Positions 20,843-31,109 are shown, counted from the stretch's first letter. The stretch is 64,000 bases of DNA from a phage (GCA_017676145.1 GCA_017676145.1_3628.1); one strand, 5' to 3'. The notes: a model not told the origin generated them from the letters alone. Made by a program: numbers and translations.

Positions 20843-22825
20843 TTATTTGATGTTATTCTTTGTATCGATCAGTTCACGGTATTCAATCATAGCAGGGGTG
20901 TCCCAATATTTCAAGCCTACATGCTTTAAAAGTGGATATTTCTTTTCCAATCTTGCAATATAGGCCTTCCCGCACTTAACTCGGTTGGCGATTAAGACTT
21001 TGGCACGATGATTCAGCTCACCATACTTCCACGTGGTGCTACCTTCCCACTTGTGGAAATGTGGCTGATAATTTCCAAAATCCTGCATGGGTATAATTTT
21101 ACCTAACTGTCTGTACAGGCTGTCATATGAAGTTTCATTTGCTGCGCGAGTCAGTAAGAATTTCCAAGCATCCTCTTTCAGCAAATGTTCCACATTCTTC
21201 TCTGTAACATATTGGCAATTAGGATCAGTCCAAAGCAGACGAGATTCTGATACCAGGTACAGATCTTCACCTTCAGGGATCTGGAGTGCCGCACGCACAC
21301 GGTCATAATTTTGCTGGTAGATGTTACTCATCTGCCCTAGCCAACAACTTCCGCGTTGGATATCCCCCTCATACGGTATGCAGTGCTTAATCTTCCTGAA
21401 CTCTGCCTTAGTAATACGCTCACGCCGGAAGTAACCATCCTTCTCAAGTTTTTTAACCCAATAACCTGGTTCGTAACGGGTTTTGGTTTCACCTTTCTTC
21501 GTAGGTCGGCGTGGAAGCTCCGATAACAATTTGACCGTATCTGCAAAAAACGGATGGTGTGCCGCCTCTTTAAACTCTTTCACCAGATCCGTGTTACGGC
21601 AATAGAAAACGTTGCGTCCGGTGATCTCGCTTAAGTAGTTACACTTATTTCGGTTATATTTACCGTCTCCGTCGTTAAATACTAAATAAACTCCCCGTAA
21701 GAATTCTACCTTTCCGTAGCAGGCGTAACCTATGCGGCCTTTATTTAAGCCGCCAGCGAAGATCTCGCAGTCCCCCAAATTCCCTAGCCCTGTTTCTTCC
21801 CAGCGGTCATACATAAAATTCTTACCGAAGATGTGCCCGAACACTCCACTGTTCTTCATCATCTCGCGTGCTTCTGAGGATGTTTTTGCTGTCTTCAGTT
21901 CTGCAACAACTTCTGCTCCACGAAGGCGAATGCCTTCTTTGACAAAAGCTTCCAAACGCTCTTGGAATCCACCATCATCGTGACCTTCTATGGTCCATTC
22001 ACGCCCTGGGTTAATATTGCAATCTCCGATAGGGATCTCTACACAAATTGCAGGATAATCTGTTAGTGTTTCCAGGAACTTAGAACGGTAAGGTTGGTGA
22101 CCCATTACCACACGACTCTCGTCAGAACTGGTATAGCCCTTCAGGATGGTCATCTTCCAACCATCTTTTTCATAATAATACTGCGCCTCTACTTTGTCTC
22201 CCTCCAGCATCTTGCTCGTCATCGGATCGGTGACAGTGAACGGAAATTTTGCATAGCGCAAACATGATGCAATAGCAGTGCGATATTTCAGAACATGCTC
22301 TTTCTTAACATGAAACTGAACTTTTACCCCGTTGTGCTCTTCAGTCTTCCGCTCACGGATCTTGGTGACATTTGGGATGCCCTGATCCAAGAACAATAGA
22401 TATGTGCTTTCCACACCATTGTGCACACTGATTACATCGAAAGTGTCTACCATGCTGAACGGGGCCTTTGAACCAACACCCTTATTACCAACCAGAGCGT
22501 TGCTATTGCGCTTGGTTGACTCACCGAGGTTCATGAAGGTGTTGCGGACCATCTCTTCTGACATGCCTAGGCCAACGTCCTGCACAAAGAAGTAGGGTTC
22601 AAGATCTGTAGGAGAGTGAATAATGATCGGTACATCACCCCGTCCAGACTCAACATGGGAGTCTACAGCATTGAAGATTGGTTCACGGCAGCTTGCCAGC
22701 ACCTTATCTTCATAAATCCCTTTAATGATTAACCCAAAAGTCTCTTTATTCAGAGAAATTGATCCCCTTGTGACCTCCATATTCCCAGTTAGCACTGCTT
22801 TAGTTTCATTACTGTTTACAATCAT
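20843..22825 (-). CDS. rIIA: rIIA-like protein with N-terminal GHKL-type ATPase domain
   Basis: 660 aa; GHKL boxes EPIFNAVDS (N box), FFVQDVGLGMSEEM (G1), GNKGVGSKAPF (G2) near the N-terminus; size and the adjacent second large ORF fit rIIA/rIIB organisation. Confidence 0.5.
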   Translation of the reverse strand: MIVNSNETKAVLTGNMEVTRGSISLNKETFGLIIKGIYEDKVLASCREPIFNAVDSHVESGRGDVPIIIHSPTDLEPYFFVQDVGLGMSEEMVRNTFMNLGESTKRNSNALVGNKGVGSKAPFSMVDTFDVISVHNGVESTYLLFLDQGIPNVTKIRERKTEEHNGVKVQFHVKKEHVLKYRTAIASCLRYAKFPFTVTDPMTSKMLEGDKVEAQYYYEKDGWKMTILKGYTSSDESRVVMGHQPYRSKFLETLTDYPAICVEIPIGDCNINPGREWTIEGHDDGGFQERLEAFVKEGIRLRGAEVVAELKTAKTSSEAREMMKNSGVFGHIFGKNFMYDRWEETGLGNLGDCEIFAGGLNKGRIGYACYGKVEFLRGVYLVFNDGDGKYNRNKCNYLSEITGRNVFYCRNTDLVKEFKEAAHHPFFADTVKLLSELPRRPTKKGETKTRYEPGYWVKKLEKDGYFRRERITKAEFRKIKHCIPYEGDIQRGSCWLGQMSNIYQQNYDRVRAALQIPEGEDLYLVSESRLLWTDPNCQYVTEKNVEHLLKEDAWKFLLTRAANETSYDSLYRQLGKIIPMQDFGNYQPHFHKWEGSTTWKYGELNHRAKVLIANRVKCGKAYIARLEKKYPLLKHVGLKYWDTPAMIEYRELIDTKNNIK

Positions 22826-23322
22826 TTATTGCGCTCCTTGTAGTAGATATGACTCCCGAATTGAGCTGTCCTCTGCATCTTTTTTGCCCATTCCGGTCGT
22901 ACTTTTGTTGTATGATAGTGTGTTGCTCCACCTGTTATATCCATAGCCATGTATGCAACATGGTTGTTATTATAGACCTTTAGAAGCATCTTTGCAAGAC
23001 TTTTAGCGTGATCCCATGAATCTTTTTCTGTCACCTTAAAAGTTTTGCCGTGGTTTGTCCACGAAAACTGGTTAGGTTGGTAGACAATCTTTCTTATAGT
23101 GTCTGGGTATTTAGGGTGAGATTTCCTGTTTAGTGTGGCAAACCCAGATGCCAACATACCCATCGTGCCATCTCCTCTGGCTTCCCTGTAGATATTGCAT
23201 GCCAGAATGTTCTCCTTAGTATCCGATGGCTTGCAGGTGTGATATACTTTTTGTTTTGGTGCTGCAACAACAGGCAGCGATAAAAGTGCGCTCAAAATAA
23301 TAGCAAAGATCTTAATTTTCAC
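22822..23322 (-). CDS. Secreted cell-wall hydrolase, SleB/Hydrolase_2 family
   Basis: N-terminal signal peptide MKIKIFAIILSALLSLPVVAAP; IYREARGDGTMGMLASGFATLNRKSHPKYPDTIRKIVYQPNQFSW matches the SleB-type hydrolase core; GTG start. Confidence 0.55.
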   Translation of the reverse strand: MKIKIFAIILSALLSLPVVAAPKQKVYHTCKPSDTKENILACNIYREARGDGTMGMLASGFATLNRKSHPKYPDTIRKIVYQPNQFSWTNHGKTFKVTEKDSWDHAKSLAKMLLKVYNNNHVAYMAMDITGGATHYHTTKVRPEWAKKMQRTAQFGSHIYYKERNK

Positions 23323-23761: not shown

Positions 23762-24946
23762 TCAAGCTTTAGCTAAAATGGCGCTAAACTCTTCACCAAA
23801 CTCTTTTACAATCTTCATCAGGTTTGGGTATGCTTTGATCAGCTGAGCAACGATCTTGTCCCGGCCTTTACCAATAAGTAAGGCATTTCCTAGGGCGTTG
23901 GGTTTCATCATCGCCATAAAGACTGAGAATACAAAGTCTCGGTTCTCATCCTTGAAATTTTCCCAAAGGAAATCAAGGAAGTTTGCCACGCAGCTAACAA
24001 GATCTTCGTCTGAGACACTTGCATTTTCCATCATATTCCGAATAGCAATACAACCTTCAGACCCAAGAATCCACAAAATATCTGGCTGCTTAGGACCTAC
24101 ATACTCTTTGCAACCCCCTGCCATAATCCGACCGATTTCTGGCAAGTTTCGTTTCTTGGTGTGGTAGGTCCAGATTTCTACCGCTGCAGTGTGACCAATA
24201 GCACCTTGCAGAAGAACACGAGCCATAGCGTCAGAAATAATACCGCTGTCAAAATCGTGCAGGATGTCAGATGCAGCAACCCAAGATCGCGGTGTAGCAA
24301 AAGATGGACAATTAATCTCAGCCATAGCCTCATAATTATCGATAGCTGATGGAACTCTTTTCAGATATCCAATTACAGAGGAATGCACACCATTAAGGAA
24401 TGCGTAGTCCTCAATAAATACCTCTGCACTGCTTGTAACTTCTACAATGATAAAGCGGTTAGCCAGAGGGGCTTCGAGCGCTGAAAGAACAGCACCATCC
24501 GTAGCACGGTTACCTGCAGCTACAAAAACAGAGCCCTTAGGAAATGCATAGGTGCCGCACTTGTGGTCGAGCATAATTTGCATTGCAACCTTCTGCAGGT
24601 AGTTATCTGCATGAGTAAGCTCATCCAGAAAGATAATTCCGCTCCAGTCCGAGTCTGCAGGCCAAAATTCTGGAATTGCAAACACTGTGCGTGTAGTTCC
24701 ATCTGCCTCTACAGGGATAGGTAGTCCAGACAAGTCAGCAGGATCTTTATCTGACAGCCGCACGTCAACCAGGTTGTCATCTCGCTCACCGAACATATTA
24801 TCAGCAATCTGCTTCATCACCTGGCTCTTCCCCACACCCATCGGTCCTAAAATCAGGACAGATCGGTTATGACGCTGGGCAAATTGAATAATAGCTGGCA
24901 ACTCGCGGACAGTGATTTGACCACTTTCGAATACGTTTCTTGACAT
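23762..24946 (-). CDS. MoxR-family AAA+ ATPase (CbbQ/NorQ/CobS-like)
   Basis: 394 aa; Walker A LILGPMGVGKSQ; Walker B IIFLDELTHAD; sensor AAGNR; single AAA module of MoxR size. Confidence 0.8.
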   Translation of the reverse strand: MSRNVFESGQITVRELPAIIQFAQRHNRSVLILGPMGVGKSQVMKQIADNMFGERDDNLVDVRLSDKDPADLSGLPIPVEADGTTRTVFAIPEFWPADSDWSGIIFLDELTHADNYLQKVAMQIMLDHKCGTYAFPKGSVFVAAGNRATDGAVLSALEAPLANRFIIVEVTSSAEVFIEDYAFLNGVHSSVIGYLKRVPSAIDNYEAMAEINCPSFATPRSWVAASDILHDFDSGIISDAMARVLLQGAIGHTAAVEIWTYHTKKRNLPEIGRIMAGGCKEYVGPKQPDILWILGSEGCIAIRNMMENASVSDEDLVSCVANFLDFLWENFKDENRDFVFSVFMAMMKPNALGNALLIGKGRDKIVAQLIKAYPNLMKIVKEFGEEFSAILAKA

Positions 24947-25215
24947 TAGTAAAAGTCCTCTACTTGTGTGTAAGTGTTTTCAAAGTTTTCCAAAACAGAC
25001 ATCACATCGGATCTGTCAATATCATACGCAACTCTCCAGCCATATGCAACCCTTTCTGCTGTTGCCTCTTCTGGAGCTAGTCGTCTGCTGGCATGAAAGA
25101 GTGTTGGAGTACACTTTCTTGCTTGCCCTCTAACTTTCCCATAATAATATCTGTGAATATCTTTGTCAAAATTTAATTCTTTTTCTGCACGAAGTTCGTA
25201 CTGCTGGTATAACAT
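24946..25215 (-). CDS. Hypothetical protein
   Basis: 89-aa ORF. Confidence 0.4.
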   Translation of the reverse strand: MLYQQYELRAEKELNFDKDIHRYYYGKVRGQARKCTPTLFHASRRLAPEEATAERVAYGWRVAYDIDRSDVMSVLENFENTYTQVEDFY

Positions 25216-25259
25216 CTCTACTGCTCCTTAAGCAGCATCCTTGCCGCCATCCCTACCCA

Positions 25260-25640
25260 CTAAAATGCAGTCCGAATCCAGACAAGGTTCTTATCTGCCC
25301 AATCATAAAGGCAAGTCATTGCACTATTGAATTGCTCACACGGAGGGTAATCTTCTTCCATCCGGCGCATAGCGGATCCTTGTGGGTATAACTCCAGTGC
25401 TGCAAACCACGCATCGTAGTCATCCACGGTGTCGAAGTAGTATACAACATCCTCCAACTCAGGATCGAACTTTGAACTATCAGGATCCAGTTGTTCAGGG
25501 AACTTGGAGCGTAACTTGCCAGCCACAATACTTGCCAACTCGCTAACATGCTTGTTGTCCCACTCTACCAGTTTCCCGTCTTCAGCTATGCGTCCTAACC
25601 ACTGATCATGAAGGTCAACTGTTGTCTTCCACTGGGCCAT
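25260..25640 (-). CDS. Hypothetical protein
   Basis: 126-aa ORF. Confidence 0.45.
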   Translation of the reverse strand: MAQWKTTVDLHDQWLGRIAEDGKLVEWDNKHVSELASIVAGKLRSKFPEQLDPDSSKFDPELEDVVYYFDTVDDYDAWFAALELYPQGSAMRRMEEDYPPCEQFNSAMTCLYDWADKNLVWIRTAF

Positions 25641-25642
25641 TA

Positions 25643-25900
25643 TCAGTTCACCTCTTCTTCTCGTTGCAGTTCAAGATACCCGTAGGTCTGGATATCTTCA
25701 AGGGTGTGGAACTCCCCATCTGCCGCTAAGGCACGGACAACCTGGCATAGGGTTTTATAAGGTACTTTCTCCAAACCTAGATTCAGCGCAGGAAAAACCT
25801 TATCTAAGTCAACAAAATATACAAACTGTAGCTCACCAGTTTCAAAAGGCGTATCTTCGATAAACATCTTCTCGGCATTGGTTAAGATTTGCACTTTCAT
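25643..25900 (-). CDS. Hypothetical protein
   Basis: 85-aa ORF. Confidence 0.4.
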   Translation of the reverse strand: MKVQILTNAEKMFIEDTPFETGELQFVYFVDLDKVFPALNLGLEKVPYKTLCQVVRALAADGEFHTLEDIQTYGYLELQREEEVN

Positions 25901-26256
25901 TATTCTACCTCCTCTTCTTTTTCTTCAGTATTAGTTTCAGTGCTACCCCACTCTGGAGTTTCCACCTCGATAGTAAACTCACGCACTACACGGTAATTGC
26001 CCATGAAGCGCTCCACTTCTTCAAGGCTTATGGAGAGGCCATTGGCAACCAAGTCTGCAGCACCCTTCTCTACCAGGTAGTCCAGATTGGCTTCCAAGGC
26101 TTCAGGCTCAAACCCTGTCAATGCAATCATATAACCTTCCCCTTCATCAAGGAGGGCAATACAGCCCAACTGATTTTCTTTAAAAAAGCAGTGACCATCA
26201 CTATTGATTGGGTGTTCATTACAGTAAATAGCTGCACGATAAGTAACTTTAGACAT
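25900..26256 (-). CDS. Hypothetical protein
   Basis: 118-aa ORF with acidic C-terminus. Confidence 0.45.
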   Translation of the reverse strand: MSKVTYRAAIYCNEHPINSDGHCFFKENQLGCIALLDEGEGYMIALTGFEPEALEANLDYLVEKGAADLVANGLSISLEEVERFMGNYRVVREFTIEVETPEWGSTETNTEEKEEEVE

Positions 26257-26268
26257 TGGTAGGCCTCC

Positions 26269-26547
26269 TTAGGCAACTGTCATTTTACATTCTTGAAATT
26301 TTAACACAAGACGGTGATTGTGTCTAGTGTCTAAAAAGATTTTTTCAACCATCAGGCACACGGTATAACCGTCCGTCTTGTTGACAACAAAATCCCCAGG
26401 GTGAGGGAGAATGTCTCCGGGATTGGGGAAACATAACCCGCTCAAGAAGGCATCATCGGTGGTGGACTTAATGGATTTCCACACACTATCTGCCTGAACA
26501 TTCTCACCCACATAGTATACACTACCACATGCCTTCATCATAGTCAA
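26269..26547 (-). CDS. Hypothetical protein
   Basis: 92-aa ORF. Confidence 0.4.
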   Translation of the reverse strand: MTMMKACGSVYYVGENVQADSVWKSIKSTTDDAFLSGLCFPNPGDILPHPGDFVVNKTDGYTVCLMVEKIFLDTRHNHRLVLKFQECKMTVA

Positions 26548-27443
26548 ATCTCCGCGTAAATTAAACTGGAATCAGTATACTTCTTTAACGGGTAAATATC
26601 CTGTCCATAGATGCCGTCATTAAACACCTCATCTACCCAAAGGCTACACTTATATCCCATCATTTCTAAAACGCCCATCTCTTCTTCGGTAAACTTATCA
26701 CCACTCTTGCAAGATGTCAATACCTCATTCTGCACTCTTGCTACCTCGAAGCGGTTATTGGCAATATCACTATTGGCAATCAAATACTCACCTAAAGGGT
26801 GTGCAGCATTAAAGATGCACAGTGGACGGTTGACGTAATAGTCTCCCGGTGTATAAAAATTGTTGAGATCCTTCACCAGAACATTCTTATCAGTCACTTC
26901 ATTTATAACATCATGCATATCACACATCTTTATATGTTTGAGGATTCCATCCCCCATCACAAAATAAAAACTTGCTGAGACACTCTCGGCATAGATCTTA
27001 CTAGATCCGTTGTAGTTGTATTTTACGCGAATGCTCACAGGGGTTTTGCCTGTCGCGTTAGCCATCATCCAAAGGAACGGAAGTTCAAACTTCTCCTCTG
27101 AGGAAACAAAAGGTGAAGTTGCCAGAGATCGGAAACCACCAGAGAAGTTGAAAGTTACAGAGCCGCTCCGGCGATATGATACCGCATATTCTACTTTTAT
27201 ATCGACATAGCCGTTGGAGTAAGTGTGGCCTCCATTATCCAGATATGTCCACTTATCAGATCCGGATACCAGCCTACGCTCAATAACCTTCATTACTATA
27301 GGAATTAGCGGGTTGGTACAAACCGATTTTGAAGTAGCTTTATCATCCAAAGCCTCGTAAATTGCAGAAAGGATATCGCCTGCTGAGAGATTAGTTGTGA
27401 TATCTTGTTTCCATCGAGTGCTAAAGCTGTTAAGATTTGCCAT
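26544..27443 (-). CDS. Hypothetical protein
   Basis: ATG at 27443 (MANLNSF...) preceded by GGAG; first gene of the minus-strand block next to the divergent promoters. Confidence 0.55.
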   Translation of the reverse strand: MANLNSFSTRWKQDITTNLSAGDILSAIYEALDDKATSKSVCTNPLIPIVMKVIERRLVSGSDKWTYLDNGGHTYSNGYVDIKVEYAVSYRRSGSVTFNFSGGFRSLATSPFVSSEEKFELPFLWMMANATGKTPVSIRVKYNYNGSSKIYAESVSASFYFVMGDGILKHIKMCDMHDVINEVTDKNVLVKDLNNFYTPGDYYVNRPLCIFNAAHPLGEYLIANSDIANNRFEVARVQNEVLTSCKSGDKFTEEEMGVLEMMGYKCSLWVDEVFNDGIYGQDIYPLKKYTDSSLIYAEI

Positions 27444-27483
27444 GATTAAGTACTCCTGTGTTCGTTTTCTTTCGAATGGGTGC

Positions 27484-27512
27484 ACTATATCGTGGATTTA
27501 GAGTAAAGTCAA
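27484..27512 (-). promoter_or_regulatory. Sigma70-like promoter (minus strand) TTGACT-N17-TATAGT
   Basis: Reverse complement of 27484-27512 reads TTGACT, 17-bp spacer, TATAGT; about 40 bp upstream of the ATG at 27443. Confidence 0.5.
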
Positions 27513-27525
27513 CACGTTTTTGAGG

Positions 27526-27554
27526 TTGACATATTCCCAGGCACTTGATAAGAT
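27526..27554 (+). promoter_or_regulatory. Sigma70-like promoter (plus strand) TTGACA-N17-TAAGAT
   Basis: TTGACA at 27526-27531, 17-bp spacer, TAAGAT at 27549-27554; about 30 bp upstream of the ATG at 27586; back-to-back with the minus-strand promoter. Confidence 0.5.
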
Positions 27555-27585
27555 TTCTCCACCTACAGAGCACAAGAGACAACTC

Positions 27586-28575
27586 ATGAATCTTGAAAAA
27601 TATTATACACCAGAAGAGTTAGAGCGCCTGCTCAAAAAATACAGACGCAAACAAAATAATGCACGGAAACGAGATATAGAGTTCAACCTGTCGTGGGAAG
27701 AATACCTCCTATTTGGTAAAAAACTTTTAGGAGAGGGGGTATGCGACTATACCCTTATACCTTTCGACATGCACACAGATGAAAACGGGCTGGGGAATCC
27801 TTTCTACCCATCTCTGGAGCGGATAGATGATGAAGGTCCTTACGCAATTGATAACTGTTGTGTGGTAGGATTGAGGTGTAACTCTCTGAAAGACTGCCTG
27901 GTAGATAAAAAGACCGCAATCTTGATTAAAGACAAAACTGATCGAAAAATTGTCCAGCAGATGATGCTCCACCTGAGCGAAGAGCGCATGGAGAAATTGA
28001 AAGGTGATTACACTTTTGAAGATTTCATCTTGCAATATGGGACGGAAGAGGATAAACTGGCACTCTTTGACGAAGAATGGGAGGAAGATATGTCACCAAT
28101 GCAGGATTTTAAAAACTTCATGGCTAACCGTGGAGCCAACAAGCACATTTCTGACATTGTAAACGAGCCTGCAGCAGAGGAGATTGAAGAAGTGGAGCAA
28201 CAGGCTTACGAAGAGGAAAAAGAGCCTCAAGGGGACGAAGAAGAGCTTACAGAAGAGGTTCCTGCACTGCCTGACGATGTTGAGATTGCCAAAGCTTACA
28301 CTTTCTATTGTCAGACGTTCTACGATGCAGGTATGAAAGTTGATCTGTCATTCAGTCAATTTAAGAGCACGTACATTCGAAAATGTTGTGCTTTAACTGG
28401 TGAGCGTCTCGGGGTCGGACTTAAACCACTATTAGTGACCGACTGGAATAAAGGTTTCACCAAGGGCAACTTTATGGTAGTATCTCCAATTATGGAGAAG
28501 GCTATGACAGACCTTATGAAGACCACTCGCATGACAATGACCGAGTTGGCTGGTATTTTCAAGCACGTTAAATAA
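27586..28575 (+). CDS. Protein with duplicated degenerate HNH-like module and acidic linker
   Basis: Two related segments (CDYTLIPFD...PSLERIDDEGPYAIDNCCVV and CALTGERLG...LLVTDWNKGFTKGNFMVV) flank an E/D-rich linker; the PSLERIDD...Y..DN motif echoes the 4875-5498 product; ATG at 27586 preferred over the TTG at 27520. Confidence 0.45.
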   Translation: MNLEKYYTPEELERLLKKYRRKQNNARKRDIEFNLSWEEYLLFGKKLLGEGVCDYTLIPFDMHTDENGLGNPFYPSLERIDDEGPYAIDNCCVVGLRCNSLKDCLVDKKTAILIKDKTDRKIVQQMMLHLSEERMEKLKGDYTFEDFILQYGTEEDKLALFDEEWEEDMSPMQDFKNFMANRGANKHISDIVNEPAAEEIEEVEQQAYEEEKEPQGDEEELTEEVPALPDDVEIAKAYTFYCQTFYDAGMKVDLSFSQFKSTYIRKCCALTGERLGVGLKPLLVTDWNKGFTKGNFMVVSPIMEKAMTDLMKTTRMTMTELAGIFKHVK

Positions 28576-28608
28576 TGACAGGGGCCAATGGCCCCTTCTG
28601 GAGTTTTA

Positions 28609-30069
28609 ATGGATAGCAGAAGTTCAGAAATCATTGCCGCACAAAAAGATGACGCCTTGCGAATGCTGCAGGCAGCACGCATGTATCTTCTTGAAAAGCT
28701 GCCGTTTTATGGCACACTGTTGTCAGGGTTGCAGTTCGTAGAAAACCACACATGGTGCTCCACTATGGCAACAGACCATAAACGCATTTATTACAGCCCT
28801 GAGTTCATTATGGGGTTGGCGGATGAGCGCAAAACCATTCTTAAAGCATCTTTGACTGACAAGCAGTTTGAGATGGCTGAGGTTTTCTATTCCCCAAAAT
28901 CTGTGAAAGAGGTGGCATTTCTTCTATCGCATGAGGTGGGGCATATTATCTGTGATCATCTGGTCCGTGGCAAAAGTTTTGAGCCGGAGCTGTTCAATAT
29001 TGCCTGTGATCATGTTATCAACACAGGTCTTGTGGTTGACTTTAGCAAGCCTCCTTGTGTTTTCTTCCCGAAGGGGAAAAGCACTACGTTTGTAAAAGGT
29101 AAGCCTTTTGGCTTCTTAGCTAGTTGCTACTGTGACATGAGGTTCCATGGATGGATTGCTGAGAACGTCTATGCGGTTCTTGATAAGCAAAGAGATCAGA
29201 ATAGCGGTAAAAGTAAGAACGGTAAAGGCGAGAGCTCTCAAGGAGATAAACGACAAACCGATGATCACATGAGTGGTAACGGTGGCACTAGCGATGATCT
29301 TGGAAAGGCGATGGGGTATGATCAGCCACAACCAGTGATCAGTCAATCTGATAAAGATCAAGCCATGCAGGACTCTGGTGACATGTTGGAAGCAGCAATG
29401 CAGGCTTCCGGAGGTCGTTGCCCTGAGGCTGTGCGTGAGTTTGTCAAGAACAGAGGTAAGCCTGTAATCAATTATATAGACATCATTAAGCAACGTATGC
29501 TGTCTAAACGAAAGGCTGAACTAACCTATAGAAAACCCGGTCGCCGATCTGGGTCTTTGACCAGCACAATGCGAAAAGTTGGGGCTATAAACAAGAATCA
29601 GCACGTTGTTGTTCCAGGTCGTAATCCGGAAAACACTATAGATATTGTGGTGGCTCTAGACGTTTCTGGATCGATCTCCCAAAGAACTTTAAAGAAAATG
29701 TTCAATGAGATCACTGGGTTGTGCAATCTGTATAAAGAGTTCAAGGTTACGATGTTCTGCTGGTCAACCGAGGTTGGAGAGGTTAAAGTATACACTCGTG
29801 GGAACATCGACGAGATGATCAACTATGAGGTCCACTCAACATGGGGAACAACAGCCGCTTGCGTGTTCGAGTATCTGGACGCTAACATACCAAATGCAAA
29901 AGATGTCATCGTCCTGACCGACCTATACTTTGAGCATAACTTTGAACAAAAGGCTGTTGACAACAAGTGGAAAAAGTACGATACTCTATGGGTCCTCACT
30001 GAAGGGTATAATAAAAATTATATCCCGAGCTTTGGGAAAACTGTGGAATTAATCGAGTACGCTAAGTAA
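28609..30069 (+). CDS. vWA-domain protein with N-terminal HExxH metallopeptidase-like domain
   Basis: HExxH zinc-binding motif LSHEVGHIICDH; C-terminal vWA MIDAS motif VVALDVSGSIS; ATG at 28609 with GGAG RBS preferred over the track start at 28588. Confidence 0.7.
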   Translation: MDSRSSEIIAAQKDDALRMLQAARMYLLEKLPFYGTLLSGLQFVENHTWCSTMATDHKRIYYSPEFIMGLADERKTILKASLTDKQFEMAEVFYSPKSVKEVAFLLSHEVGHIICDHLVRGKSFEPELFNIACDHVINTGLVVDFSKPPCVFFPKGKSTTFVKGKPFGFLASCYCDMRFHGWIAENVYAVLDKQRDQNSGKSKNGKGESSQGDKRQTDDHMSGNGGTSDDLGKAMGYDQPQPVISQSDKDQAMQDSGDMLEAAMQASGGRCPEAVREFVKNRGKPVINYIDIIKQRMLSKRKAELTYRKPGRRSGSLTSTMRKVGAINKNQHVVVPGRNPENTIDIVVALDVSGSISQRTLKKMFNEITGLCNLYKEFKVTMFCWSTEVGEVKVYTRGNIDEMINYEVHSTWGTTAACVFEYLDANIPNAKDVIVLTDLYFEHNFEQKAVDNKWKKYDTLWVLTEGYNKNYIPSFGKTVELIEYAK

Positions 30070-30084
30070 GAGAGGGGGTTATTT

Positions 30085-30348
30085 ATGGCAACAGAGTTAA
30101 AATTTGCATCAAACCGTAAAACTAAGAAATATCTGTCCTCAGTGGCTCCAGGCACTGTGGTGATGTTTGTTGATGAACTTGGGGATGTGAATACAGCACT
30201 TGTTGTAAAATCACATCCTGCAAACATATATGTTGGGGTATTTGACCTGTTCAGAAAAGTGTTTGTAGAACTACCCCACAGTTTAGTTGTTACAGAAATG
30301 GATGCCTGCATAGAAATTCTTGGCGAAGTTATGGTGGAGGAACAATAA
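30085..30348 (+). CDS. Hypothetical protein, tandem paralog 1 of 4
   Basis: 87 aa; GAGGGGG RBS; same length and K-rich N-terminus as the next two copies. Confidence 0.6.
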   Translation: MATELKFASNRKTKKYLSSVAPGTVVMFVDELGDVNTALVVKSHPANIYVGVFDLFRKVFVELPHSLVVTEMDACIEILGEVMVEEQ

Positions 30349-30611
30349 TGGCTACTAGCATTGTATTCAATTCTAAGGTGAAGAACAAAAAGCGTGCAGA
30401 CAGCTTTCCGTGTGGGACCGTGGTAAGTTGCGACGGAGACGGCATTCAAAACATAGTTATGATTGTCAAAACAGGAGAACATTGTGTGTGGGGGTTCGAT
30501 TTAGAAAATAATGAGTTGTACGATCTGCCACCAAACATGAAAGTTACAGAGCTTGACACCAAAATTACCATCCTTGGAGAGACAAGCTATTCAAAAGAAG
30601 GAGGAGAATAA
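30348..30611 (+). CDS. Hypothetical protein, tandem paralog 2 of 4
   Basis: 87 aa; ATG overlaps the upstream stop (translational coupling). Confidence 0.6.
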   Translation: MATSIVFNSKVKNKKRADSFPCGTVVSCDGDGIQNIVMIVKTGEHCVWGFDLENNELYDLPPNMKVTELDTKITILGETSYSKEGGE

Positions 30612-30874
30612 TGACCACAAAAATCACTATCGCAGAACCGAAAGCTAACACTCAACCTATCGAAAAGTTTAAATGCGGGGAGGTGGTAACATTTACACCA
30701 GATAATGAAGATGCTAAGATTTTCGCCATGGTCACAGCTGAGTGGATGTGTGACAATACCACACAGGTTCTGCGTTTTGACACCTATCTTACAGATGAAA
30801 TCAGGAACGATAAGATCGTGACTGGTGTGGATACTGAGATTATTTTCTACAAGAGCTTTTTAGAGGGTTTCTGA
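30611..30874 (+). CDS. Hypothetical protein, tandem paralog 3 of 4
   Basis: 87 aa; ATG overlaps the upstream stop. Confidence 0.6.
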   Translation: MTTKITIAEPKANTQPIEKFKCGEVVTFTPDNEDAKIFAMVTAEWMCDNTTQVLRFDTYLTDEIRNDKIVTGVDTEIIFYKSFLEGF

Positions 30875-30875
30875 T

Positions 30876-31109
30876 ATGGCAAAAATTCGTAAATTATCCA
30901 GCAATCAAGTTGTGAAAGACTTTGAATCTGGAGAGATTCTGTATGTTCGTGATGCAGATGACGAAGGTGAAGATCTTGTTATGCTAGTAGGACACGCTGA
31001 AGACGGATGCATACAGGCTGTTTTTCTTGAAACAGCTATGGTGCACTGGATAGAGCTGGACCTGAAAGCACGAAAACCTAAAGCAGAGATCCTGATTTAC
31101 GAAGATTAA
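30876..31109 (+). CDS. Hypothetical protein, tandem paralog 4 of 4
   Basis: 77 aa; similar layout, acidic core DADDEGEDLVMLVGHAEDG. Confidence 0.55.
   Translation: MAKIRKLSSNQVVKDFESGEILYVRDADDEGEDLVMLVGHAEDGCIQAVFLETAMVHWIELDLKARKPKAEILIYED

Follow-up and report, generated by a model that had tools for sequence, protein, structure and literature searches.

A MoxR-like ATPase and a metallopeptidase-vWA partner, divergently encoded in an rV5-like phage, as orthologues of N4 gp24 and gp25

What do a MoxR-type AAA+ ATPase and a putative metallopeptidase bearing a von Willebrand factor A-type (vWA) domain do in a phage, and do they act together when their genes stand on opposite strands? This question is raised by a 64,000-nucleotide (nt) stretch of the phage genome GCA_017676145.1 (here the window, with positions counted from its first letter), in which the ATPase gene occupies the minus strand at 23762..24946 (394 amino acids, aa) and the partner gene the plus strand at 28609..30069 (486 aa), divergent and separated by 3.66 kb. 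More than 100 published coliphages of the rV5-like group (Vequintavirus: ECP26, EmilHeitz, rV5, Murica, EdH4, and others) match the region at 93 to 96% nucleotide identity. On sequence grounds, we identify the pair as the rV5-lineage orthologue of gp24/gp25 of phage N4, and ATPase and partner very probably form one machine. The best explanation, to which we give a probability of roughly 0.55, is a two-component, ATP-driven protease or remodeller targeted by a metal ion-dependent adhesion site (MIDAS), acting in the early/middle phase of infection on a client that is a conserved phage or host protein.

The relationship to N4 is visible at the level of single proteins and of gene order. In BLASTP the ATPase aligns with gp24 over nearly its full length (27% identity, E = 8e-29) and the partner with gp25 (21% identity, E = 2e-20) with the HExxH and DxSGS motifs in register, and hidden Markov models (HMMs) of the two families match the N4 proteins at 1e-57 (ATPase) and 3e-82 (partner). 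The N4 order gp24-gp25-dCTP deaminase-...-rIIA-rIIB-...-helicase-DNA polymerase mirrors the leftward operon of the window, which reads ATPase-x-SleB-like hydrolase-rIIA-rIIB-helicase-methyltransferases-primase/helicase-DNA polymerase. The two N4 genes are adjacent and co-directional with a 167-nt gap, whereas those of the window lie on opposite strands around a bidirectional promoter, and the rV5 partner carries a linker that is about 100 residues longer than that of gp25 and partly disordered. The set of 14 core genes shared by N4-like phages includes both gp24 and gp25, which N4 transcribes as middle genes (PMC4193335), and gp24, described as an "AAA+ ATPase," appears with gp25 in the Schitoviridae pan-proteome (PMC7650795). 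Middle-phase expression, known for N4 only, is suggested for the window phage by its sigma70-like promoters and neighboring genes.

Co-occurrence of the two genes in related genomes, as expected if they act together, was assessed by scanning 80 IMG/VR loci with an ATPase relative (found from the ATPase alignment) with HMMs of both families. The partner lies immediately downstream on the same strand in 61 loci (median gap 114 nt, range 43 to 967), and in nine relatives of the window phage, with ATPases 50 to 73% identical, the genes are split and divergent at a distance of 3.5 to 4.6 kb. A further nine contigs end right after the ATPase, and in one locus no partner occurs within 10 kb, its gene lying elsewhere on that contig at a distance of about 98 kb. 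Both genes are therefore present in 71/71 informative loci (61 adjacent, 9 split, 1 distant), and their co-inheritance is kept even where they are wholly unlinked. The distant case (L011/L095; IMGVR_UViG_3300045988_163358, 136 kb) encodes an ATPase 58% and a partner 46% identical to those of the window, and the separation would shrink to about 36 kb if the genome were circularly permuted. Of the small genes on either side of the window ATPase, hardly any can be recognized there. In the loci examined, no third conserved component was found beside the adjacent pairs. Since co-inheritance survives unlinking, and the module is the same as N4 gp24/gp25, the two products probably act in trans.

Adjacent pairs are also encoded by Certrevirus CR8 (Vequintavirinae; gp116/gp117, 67-nt gap), N4, jumbo phage 121Q, N4-like metagenomic contigs, and bacterial chromosomes, and tblastn searches recover the pair in phages of roseobacters, Vibrio, and Pseudomonas as well as in coliphages. 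One further relative, with a partner 62% identical, has the split layout too. Given that adjacency is seen in Certrevirus CR8, N4, and other loci, and that the split is confined to closer relatives of the window phage, the divergent arrangement looks like a derived, lineage-specific, inversion-type rearrangement of a normally adjacent operon that took place after divergence from Certrevirus-like phages. The distribution over two divergent operons emphasized in the first-pass annotation is thus real, but it belongs to this lineage rather than to the system.

The partner open reading frame (ORF), which ends at 30069, has two possible starts, 28588 and 28609. We rejected the former in favor of the start given in the first-pass annotation: the ATG at 28588 falls within a GC hairpin, whereas 28609 is preceded by GGAG 5 nt upstream and gives the 486-aa length of a database homologue that is 99% identical. 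Residue numbers given here for the partner follow the 493-aa numbering from 28588, so that E116 corresponds to E109 in the 486-aa numbering. The hairpin itself (AGGGGCCAATGGCCCCT, 28580..28596), GC rich and perfect, was located by a sequence scan between the stop of an anti-sigma-like gene and the partner start, overlapping the spurious ATG; it could be an attenuator, a terminator, or an RNA-processing site between the two co-directional plus-strand genes.

From N to C terminus, the partner matches the Pfam families DUF2201_N (PF13203; 6e-28, 98.6 bits against a cut-off of 23.2) and DUF2201 (PF09967, "VWA-like"; 3.6e-11, 43.7 bits against 26.4), and it matches phrog_1314 at 4e-122, which bears out the earlier description of a protein combining HExxH with a vWA motif. 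The zinc site HEVGHIICDH (HExxHxxxxH) is encoded on the plus strand at 28930..28959, and the vWA domain, at residues ~351 to 487 (29638..30048), contains a complete MIDAS made up of D358-x-S360-x-S362 (DVSGS, 29659-29673), T421 (29848-29850), and D445 (29920-29922). Across 43 partner homologues, down to ~21% identity, H115, E116, H119, H124, and D141 are invariant, and so are all five MIDAS residues. Directly before the vWA domain, the alignment reveals a basic motif, KPGRR (29533..29547; family consensus RPxRR), with R319 and R320 nearly invariant among homologues, which might serve as an ATPase contact or a cleavage site.

In the AlphaFold2 (AF2) model of the partner (predicted local distance difference test, pLDDT, 83.6), a Gly/Ser/acidic linker at residues ~205 to 250 (29200..29337) is predicted to be disordered, with pLDDT below 50 over residues 212 to 235; N4 gp25, a shorter protein (380 aa), gives a poor alignment here. 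NorD VWA is found among the structural matches of the vWA domain. A profile search against PDB yields vWA matches, as well as weak Peptidase_M48, MJ1213, and BepA matches centered on HExxH, and a single-sequence search of the partner against the same database returned nothing. Judged by its motifs and domains, the partner is predicted to join a zincin-type metallopeptidase to a vWA domain whose MIDAS is complete. Its family comprises 15,378 clusters (50% identity) at E <= 1e-30, almost all of which share this architecture over their full length.

In PHROG 1314 and many GenBank records the partner is called an "HNH endonuclease." We reject this label, since the domains are DUF2201_N and DUF2201 and no HNH domain is detectable; it is a propagated misannotation. 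The mislabel is widespread in PHROGs and RefSeq phage records for this protein, to which N4 gp25 (L007, 5165-6307), CR8 gp117 (L101, 6262-7818), and 121Q gene 564 (L096, 5980-7404) belong; the last of these is labeled "T4-gp25-like," apparently through a mix-up with N4 gp25.

The ATPase carries Walker A (GPMGVGKS, G34 to S41, 24824..24847), Walker B (IIFLDELTHAD, with D108 and E109, 24605..24637), and the sensor-1 region (AAGNR, with N146 and R147, 24506..24520), all on the minus strand. Together with the two partner motifs these are the five on which the first-pass annotation was built, and all translate at the expected coordinates. They are not chance occurrences, with HExxHxxxxH, MIDAS, and Walker A/B invariant down to ~21 to 30% identity. 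An alignment of 42 ATPase sequences shows G37, G39, K40, S41, D108, E109, N146, R147, R164, and R220 to be invariant, and the three arginines are candidate arginine-finger or sensor-2 residues by their conservation. The AF2 model (pLDDT 85.7) displays a helix-2 insert forming a beta-hairpin at residues 75 to 90 (24677..24724, minus; DSSP strands 75 to 81 and 84 to 90), flanked by D71, G74, A90, P92, P96, and D98, again invariant among the 42 homologues. It also displays a short two-strand element (DSSP, residues 129 to 134) within HKCGTYAFPK (residues 128 to 137, 24536..24565, minus), ahead of the sensor-1 strand (138 to 146), which in the model may be read as a pre-sensor-1 beta-hairpin, and an additional C-terminal helical domain of ~120 residues.

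Assignment of this ATPase to the MoxR group draws on several comparisons. A Foldseek search of the model against PDB places only NorQ or CbbQ2 at ranks 1 to 16 (E = 5e-8 to 1.5e-6), both of which are MoxR ATPases. The family profile matches midasin AAA domains (E = 2e-12), the protein matches phrog_1297 at 4e-110, and relatives at 31 to 36% identity over ~85% of the length carry AAA_3, AAA_5, or bpMoxR matches, mostly weak. Single-sequence searches are less specific: phmmer against PDB sequences gives local Walker A matches to Clp proteins only, NCBIfam and PADLOC give P-loop-level matches only (PADLOC E of at least 5.6e-4), and AAA_3 is not reported for the window ATPase in the Pfam scan. Such matches (Clp, sigma54, and others) are sub-threshold and P-loop centered and were not used for classification. 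The ATPase is thus MoxR-like by fold, profile, and relatives, as the first-pass annotation had it, and not by Pfam thresholds. Both genes are under strong purifying selection; compared with phage EmilHeitz (dS ~0.3), the ATPase has a dN/dS (ratio of nonsynonymous to synonymous substitution rates) of 0.016 and the partner one of 0.039.

Several known systems resemble the pair. NorQ/NorD and CbbQ/CbbO, which provide the best fold matches for the ATPase (Foldseek E = 5e-8 to 2e-7), likewise have a helix-2 insert, a complete MIDAS, and one ATPase gene with one vWA gene. The N terminus of the window partner is a predicted zincin peptidase (DUF2201_N), unlike the N-terminal domains of NorD and CbbO, and the window ATPase has its extra C-terminal domain. 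For NorQD, a finger-in-pore and twisting model has been proposed, in which the helix-2 insert grips a finger of the vWA protein (PMC13036017), and by analogy NorQD offers the best mechanistic template for the phage pair. Bacterial AAA_5 plus DUF2201 pairs (COG0714-type with a "predicted metal-dependent peptidase") belong to the same families and lie side by side on one strand, as in Sulfurivermis fontis, but their setting is chromosomal, not among phage replication genes. In the gammaproteobacterial chromosomes of L005 and L097/L098, such pairs are accompanied by Hsp15 and thioredoxin, plus HtpG or Lon, which hints at a proteostasis role for the nonphage members. Finally, the vWA-MoxR-VMAP ternary conflict systems (Kaur et al. 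2020, PMC7159879) have a MoxR and vWA core in common with the window, and a metallopeptidase is occasionally fused to them as an effector (PMC7159879). The window pair has neither VMAP nor an effector array, its bpMoxR match is sub-threshold, and it is therefore not a member.

How, then, might the pair work? In the protease/remodeller model a MoxR-type AAA+ ring would be the motor, and the partner both adaptor and protease. If it resembles NorQD and CbbQO, a hexamer of the ATPase would grip the vWA domain via its helix-2 inserts, while the MIDAS metal would bind an acidic residue of the client protein. ATP hydrolysis would then twist or stretch the linker, thereby activating the peptidase or offering it the client for cleavage, and the N-terminal zincin domain would cut the captured client. 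Because the products would act in trans, the split would not break the machine and could be tolerated.

Action would take place within the infected cell during the replication phase rather than in virion maturation. Neighbors in five diverse adjacent loci include a 5'-3' exonuclease (3/5), ThyA/ThyX, GTP cyclohydrolase I, radical SAM, MazG, and HIT genes, and in N4-like contigs dCTP deaminase/dUTPase and ThyX genes lie directly downstream of the pair. These replication and nucleotide-metabolism neighbors, together with middle expression in N4, lead us to favor a middle-phase intracellular role. A more specific version, which we put forward only tentatively, holds that the pair is an AAA+-coupled, MIDAS-targeted, site-specific protease that is essential in the replication phase and has been kept in N4-like podoviruses, rV5-like myoviruses, and jumbo phages alike. 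It might, for example, remove or process a conserved protein, encoded by host or phage, that binds DNA or takes part in nucleotide metabolism.

A number of points weigh against the protease/remodeller model. The interaction of ATPase and partner, ATPase activity, and proteolysis are all predicted, and the neighborhood evidence for timing and target is circumstantial. None of the AAA models in Pfam reaches its gathering threshold with the ATPase (AAA_5, 17.0 against 22 bits; bpMoxR, 15.7 against 27), and fold and profile searches found no solved structural relative of the peptidase domain, so that the term "active protease" refers to the invariant HExxHxxxxH and the weak M48-type matches. Judging from the AF2 secondary-structure string, the vWA domain is compact and minimal (~140 aa), with no obvious finger insertion comparable to that of NorD. 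Two observations in other phages, at the same time, favor a different role. In jumbo phage 121Q, the pair lies between genes annotated "structural protein" and tail fiber genes, and virion mass spectrometry of phAPEC6 reports six peptides of the orthologous 49.5-kDa ATPase gp265c.

These two observations are in keeping with a virion-assembly chaperone and maturation protease, in which the pair would assemble tail or head while the peptidase trims structural proteins. Iyer et al. (2021) described a MoxR and metallopeptidase-vWA chaperone-cochaperone pair in group 2.2 jumbo phages and proposed such a role in virion assembly and proteolytic processing by analogy with the MoxR/vWA proteins of Acidianus two-tailed virus (PMC7824862). 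The jumbo-phage pair has the same families and domain architecture (121Q, PBECO4, and CBB-type phages were found by both tblastn searches), and the rightward operon of the window, too, heads towards tail-fiber genes. The jumbo-phage copies, however, are adjacent and stand among structural genes, unlike those of the window, and in the rV5-like, N4-like, and aquatic phages it is genes for replication and nucleotide metabolism that surround the pair. Among 69 neighbor ORFs scanned, no capsid or tail families were found, save one Mtd_N tropism-determinant match. The N4 genes, moreover, are middle and not late transcripts (PMC4193335), and the pair is common to podoviruses and myoviruses with unrelated tails. 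As for phAPEC6, the same virion list also holds thymidylate synthase, which makes carry-over likely, and the partner does not figure among the entries examined. We therefore consider a role in virion assembly unlikely.

Somewhat less probable again is that the pair is a host-takeover or counter-defense protease, which early in infection would capture and cleave a host protein, be it one involved in defense, one of the nucleoid, or a transcription factor, to name examples. Its location in the early/middle region would suit this, as would the position of the partner directly after an Srd/"anti-sigma"-like gene, with rIIA/rIIB nearby. Antidefense genes are usually accessory and fast evolving. This pair, by contrast, is core in N4-like phages (PMC4193335, PMC7650795), spans hosts from those of roseobacter phages to those of coliphages with very low dN/dS, and has homologous pairs in bacterial chromosomes beside the chaperone, thioredoxin, and protease genes mentioned above. 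In PADLOC, the ATPase has no significant match and the partner has none. Defense or antidefense was accordingly rejected as the primary reading, in view of the lack of PADLOC support and the core-gene status.

We regard as improbable a chaperone that inserts a metal or cofactor, in the manner of NorQD, CbbQO, CobST, or CoxDE, and so activates a metalloenzyme of nucleotide metabolism, of phage or host, with HExxH used for metal handling and not for proteolysis. The nearest solved structures are those of NorQ, CbbQ, and the NorD VWA; known MoxR-vWA pairs mostly mature metalloenzymes (PMC13036017, PMC7159879); and linkage to ThyX, radical-SAM, and 2OG-Fe(II) genes recurs. No single metalloenzyme is consistently adjacent across lineages, however, no client gene of the nitric oxide reductase (NOR), Rubisco, or CobN type was found in any neighborhood examined, and the N-terminal domain belongs to a zincin-type HExxH family with an invariant site, unlike NorD and CbbO. 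A cobaltochelatase CobS/CobT-type function was rejected on the grounds that no CobN or tetrapyrrole genes lie nearby; a ferrochelatase gene occurs near the pair in only one of the bacterial loci examined. That the two genes are functionally unrelated here, with the split marking their decoupling and the motif combination a coincidence, could be argued from their opposite strands and from the ~98-kb separation in one related contig but is largely refuted by their joint presence in every informative locus, their adjacency in N4 and the sister genus Certrevirus, and the strong purifying selection on both.

The promoter between the two operons, predicted in the first-pass annotation, also finds support. 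A divergent intergenic region of 142 nt (27444..27585, bounded by gene starts taken from PHROG alignment offsets and public annotation) contains, by consensus scan, back-to-back sigma70-like promoters: a leftward TTGACT-17-TATAGT on the minus strand (27512-27484) and a rightward TTGACA-17-TG-TAAGAT on the plus strand (27526-27554). In relatives whose partner protein is ~61 to 62% identical, both -35 hexamers are invariant, while the spacer around them has diverged. Over the wider region promoter-like matches number 19, no more than chance would give (16.0 +/- 4.9), and the argument for a promoter consequently relies on position and conservation. ATPase and partner thus both appear to lie downstream of one conserved bidirectional promoter region.

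First in the rightward operon, directly 5' of the partner gene, is the Srd/"anti-sigma"-like gene (27586..28575, plus; phrog_3118, with weaker matches to Srd/sigma70-decoy PHROGs). It is also found directly upstream of the partner in L008, L012, and L088, and we note it as context, with any part in the machine only putative. Right after the partner follow four tandem small ORFs (30085-31109, plus; 87, 87, 87, and 77 aa), which can all be aligned with one another (38% identity between the first and the second) and look like a tandem paralogue array; none is found at E < 1e-4 in L008 or L012, where the partner is ~61% and ~47% identical. GC skew is negative across nearly the whole window and positive only from ~28 to 34 kb, a stretch that matches the short rightward operon from the divergent promoter. 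On the other side of the promoter, a 299-aa ORF (26544-27443, minus), for which relatives carry the annotation "alpha 1-3 fucosyltransferase," matches nothing in Pfam at E <= 0.01 and, among PHROGs, only 12338, of the function-unknown class. Between the ATPase block and rIIA, a SleB-type cell wall hydrolase (22822-23322, minus; Pfam Hydrolase_2, 2.7e-19) with a hydrophobic, signal peptide-like N terminus sits in the early/middle replication operon and not in a lysis cassette. Among the close relatives of the window, 16 records named "Campylobacter phage" (host C. jejuni; e.g., MG065677.1, MG065644.1, and MG065661.1) are 93 to 99% identical to E. coli rV5-like phages here, suggesting that their host labels are doubtful, through contamination or mislabeling.

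The proposal that this is an undescribed system does not stand. Descriptions of the pair already exist for many phages, and its presence in a large virulent phage is nothing unusual: dozens of GenBank records label the ATPase as "MoxR ATPase" or "ATPase" and the partner as "putative metallopeptidase," "VWA-like domain containing protein," or "HNH endonuclease"; its N4 counterparts are core genes; the pairing has been published for jumbo phages; and the partner family is very large. In keeping with the first-pass annotation, we found no experimentally established role: no experimental study of a phage MoxR/metallopeptidase-vWA pair was found in the literature, and a CRISPRi-ART paper using EdH4 and N4 holds no data on the ATPase or partner genes. 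What is new here is the explicit orthology and shared synteny between rV5 and N4, the quantified co-occurrence, the recognition of the divergent layout as a derived rearrangement around a conserved bidirectional promoter, and context evidence that points away from the published idea of virion assembly.

The pair is among the most widely conserved phage modules of putative function, extending over the N4-like core, rV5-like phages, jumbo phages, and bacterial chromosomes. With the rV5 genes recognized as the N4 gp24/gp25 module, its function is open to study in two kinds of phage that infect E. coli K-12, namely N4 and the BASEL/EdH4 rV5-likes. Identification of the substrate would give a role to thousands of proteins now annotated as "hypothetical," "HNH endonuclease," or "ATPase."

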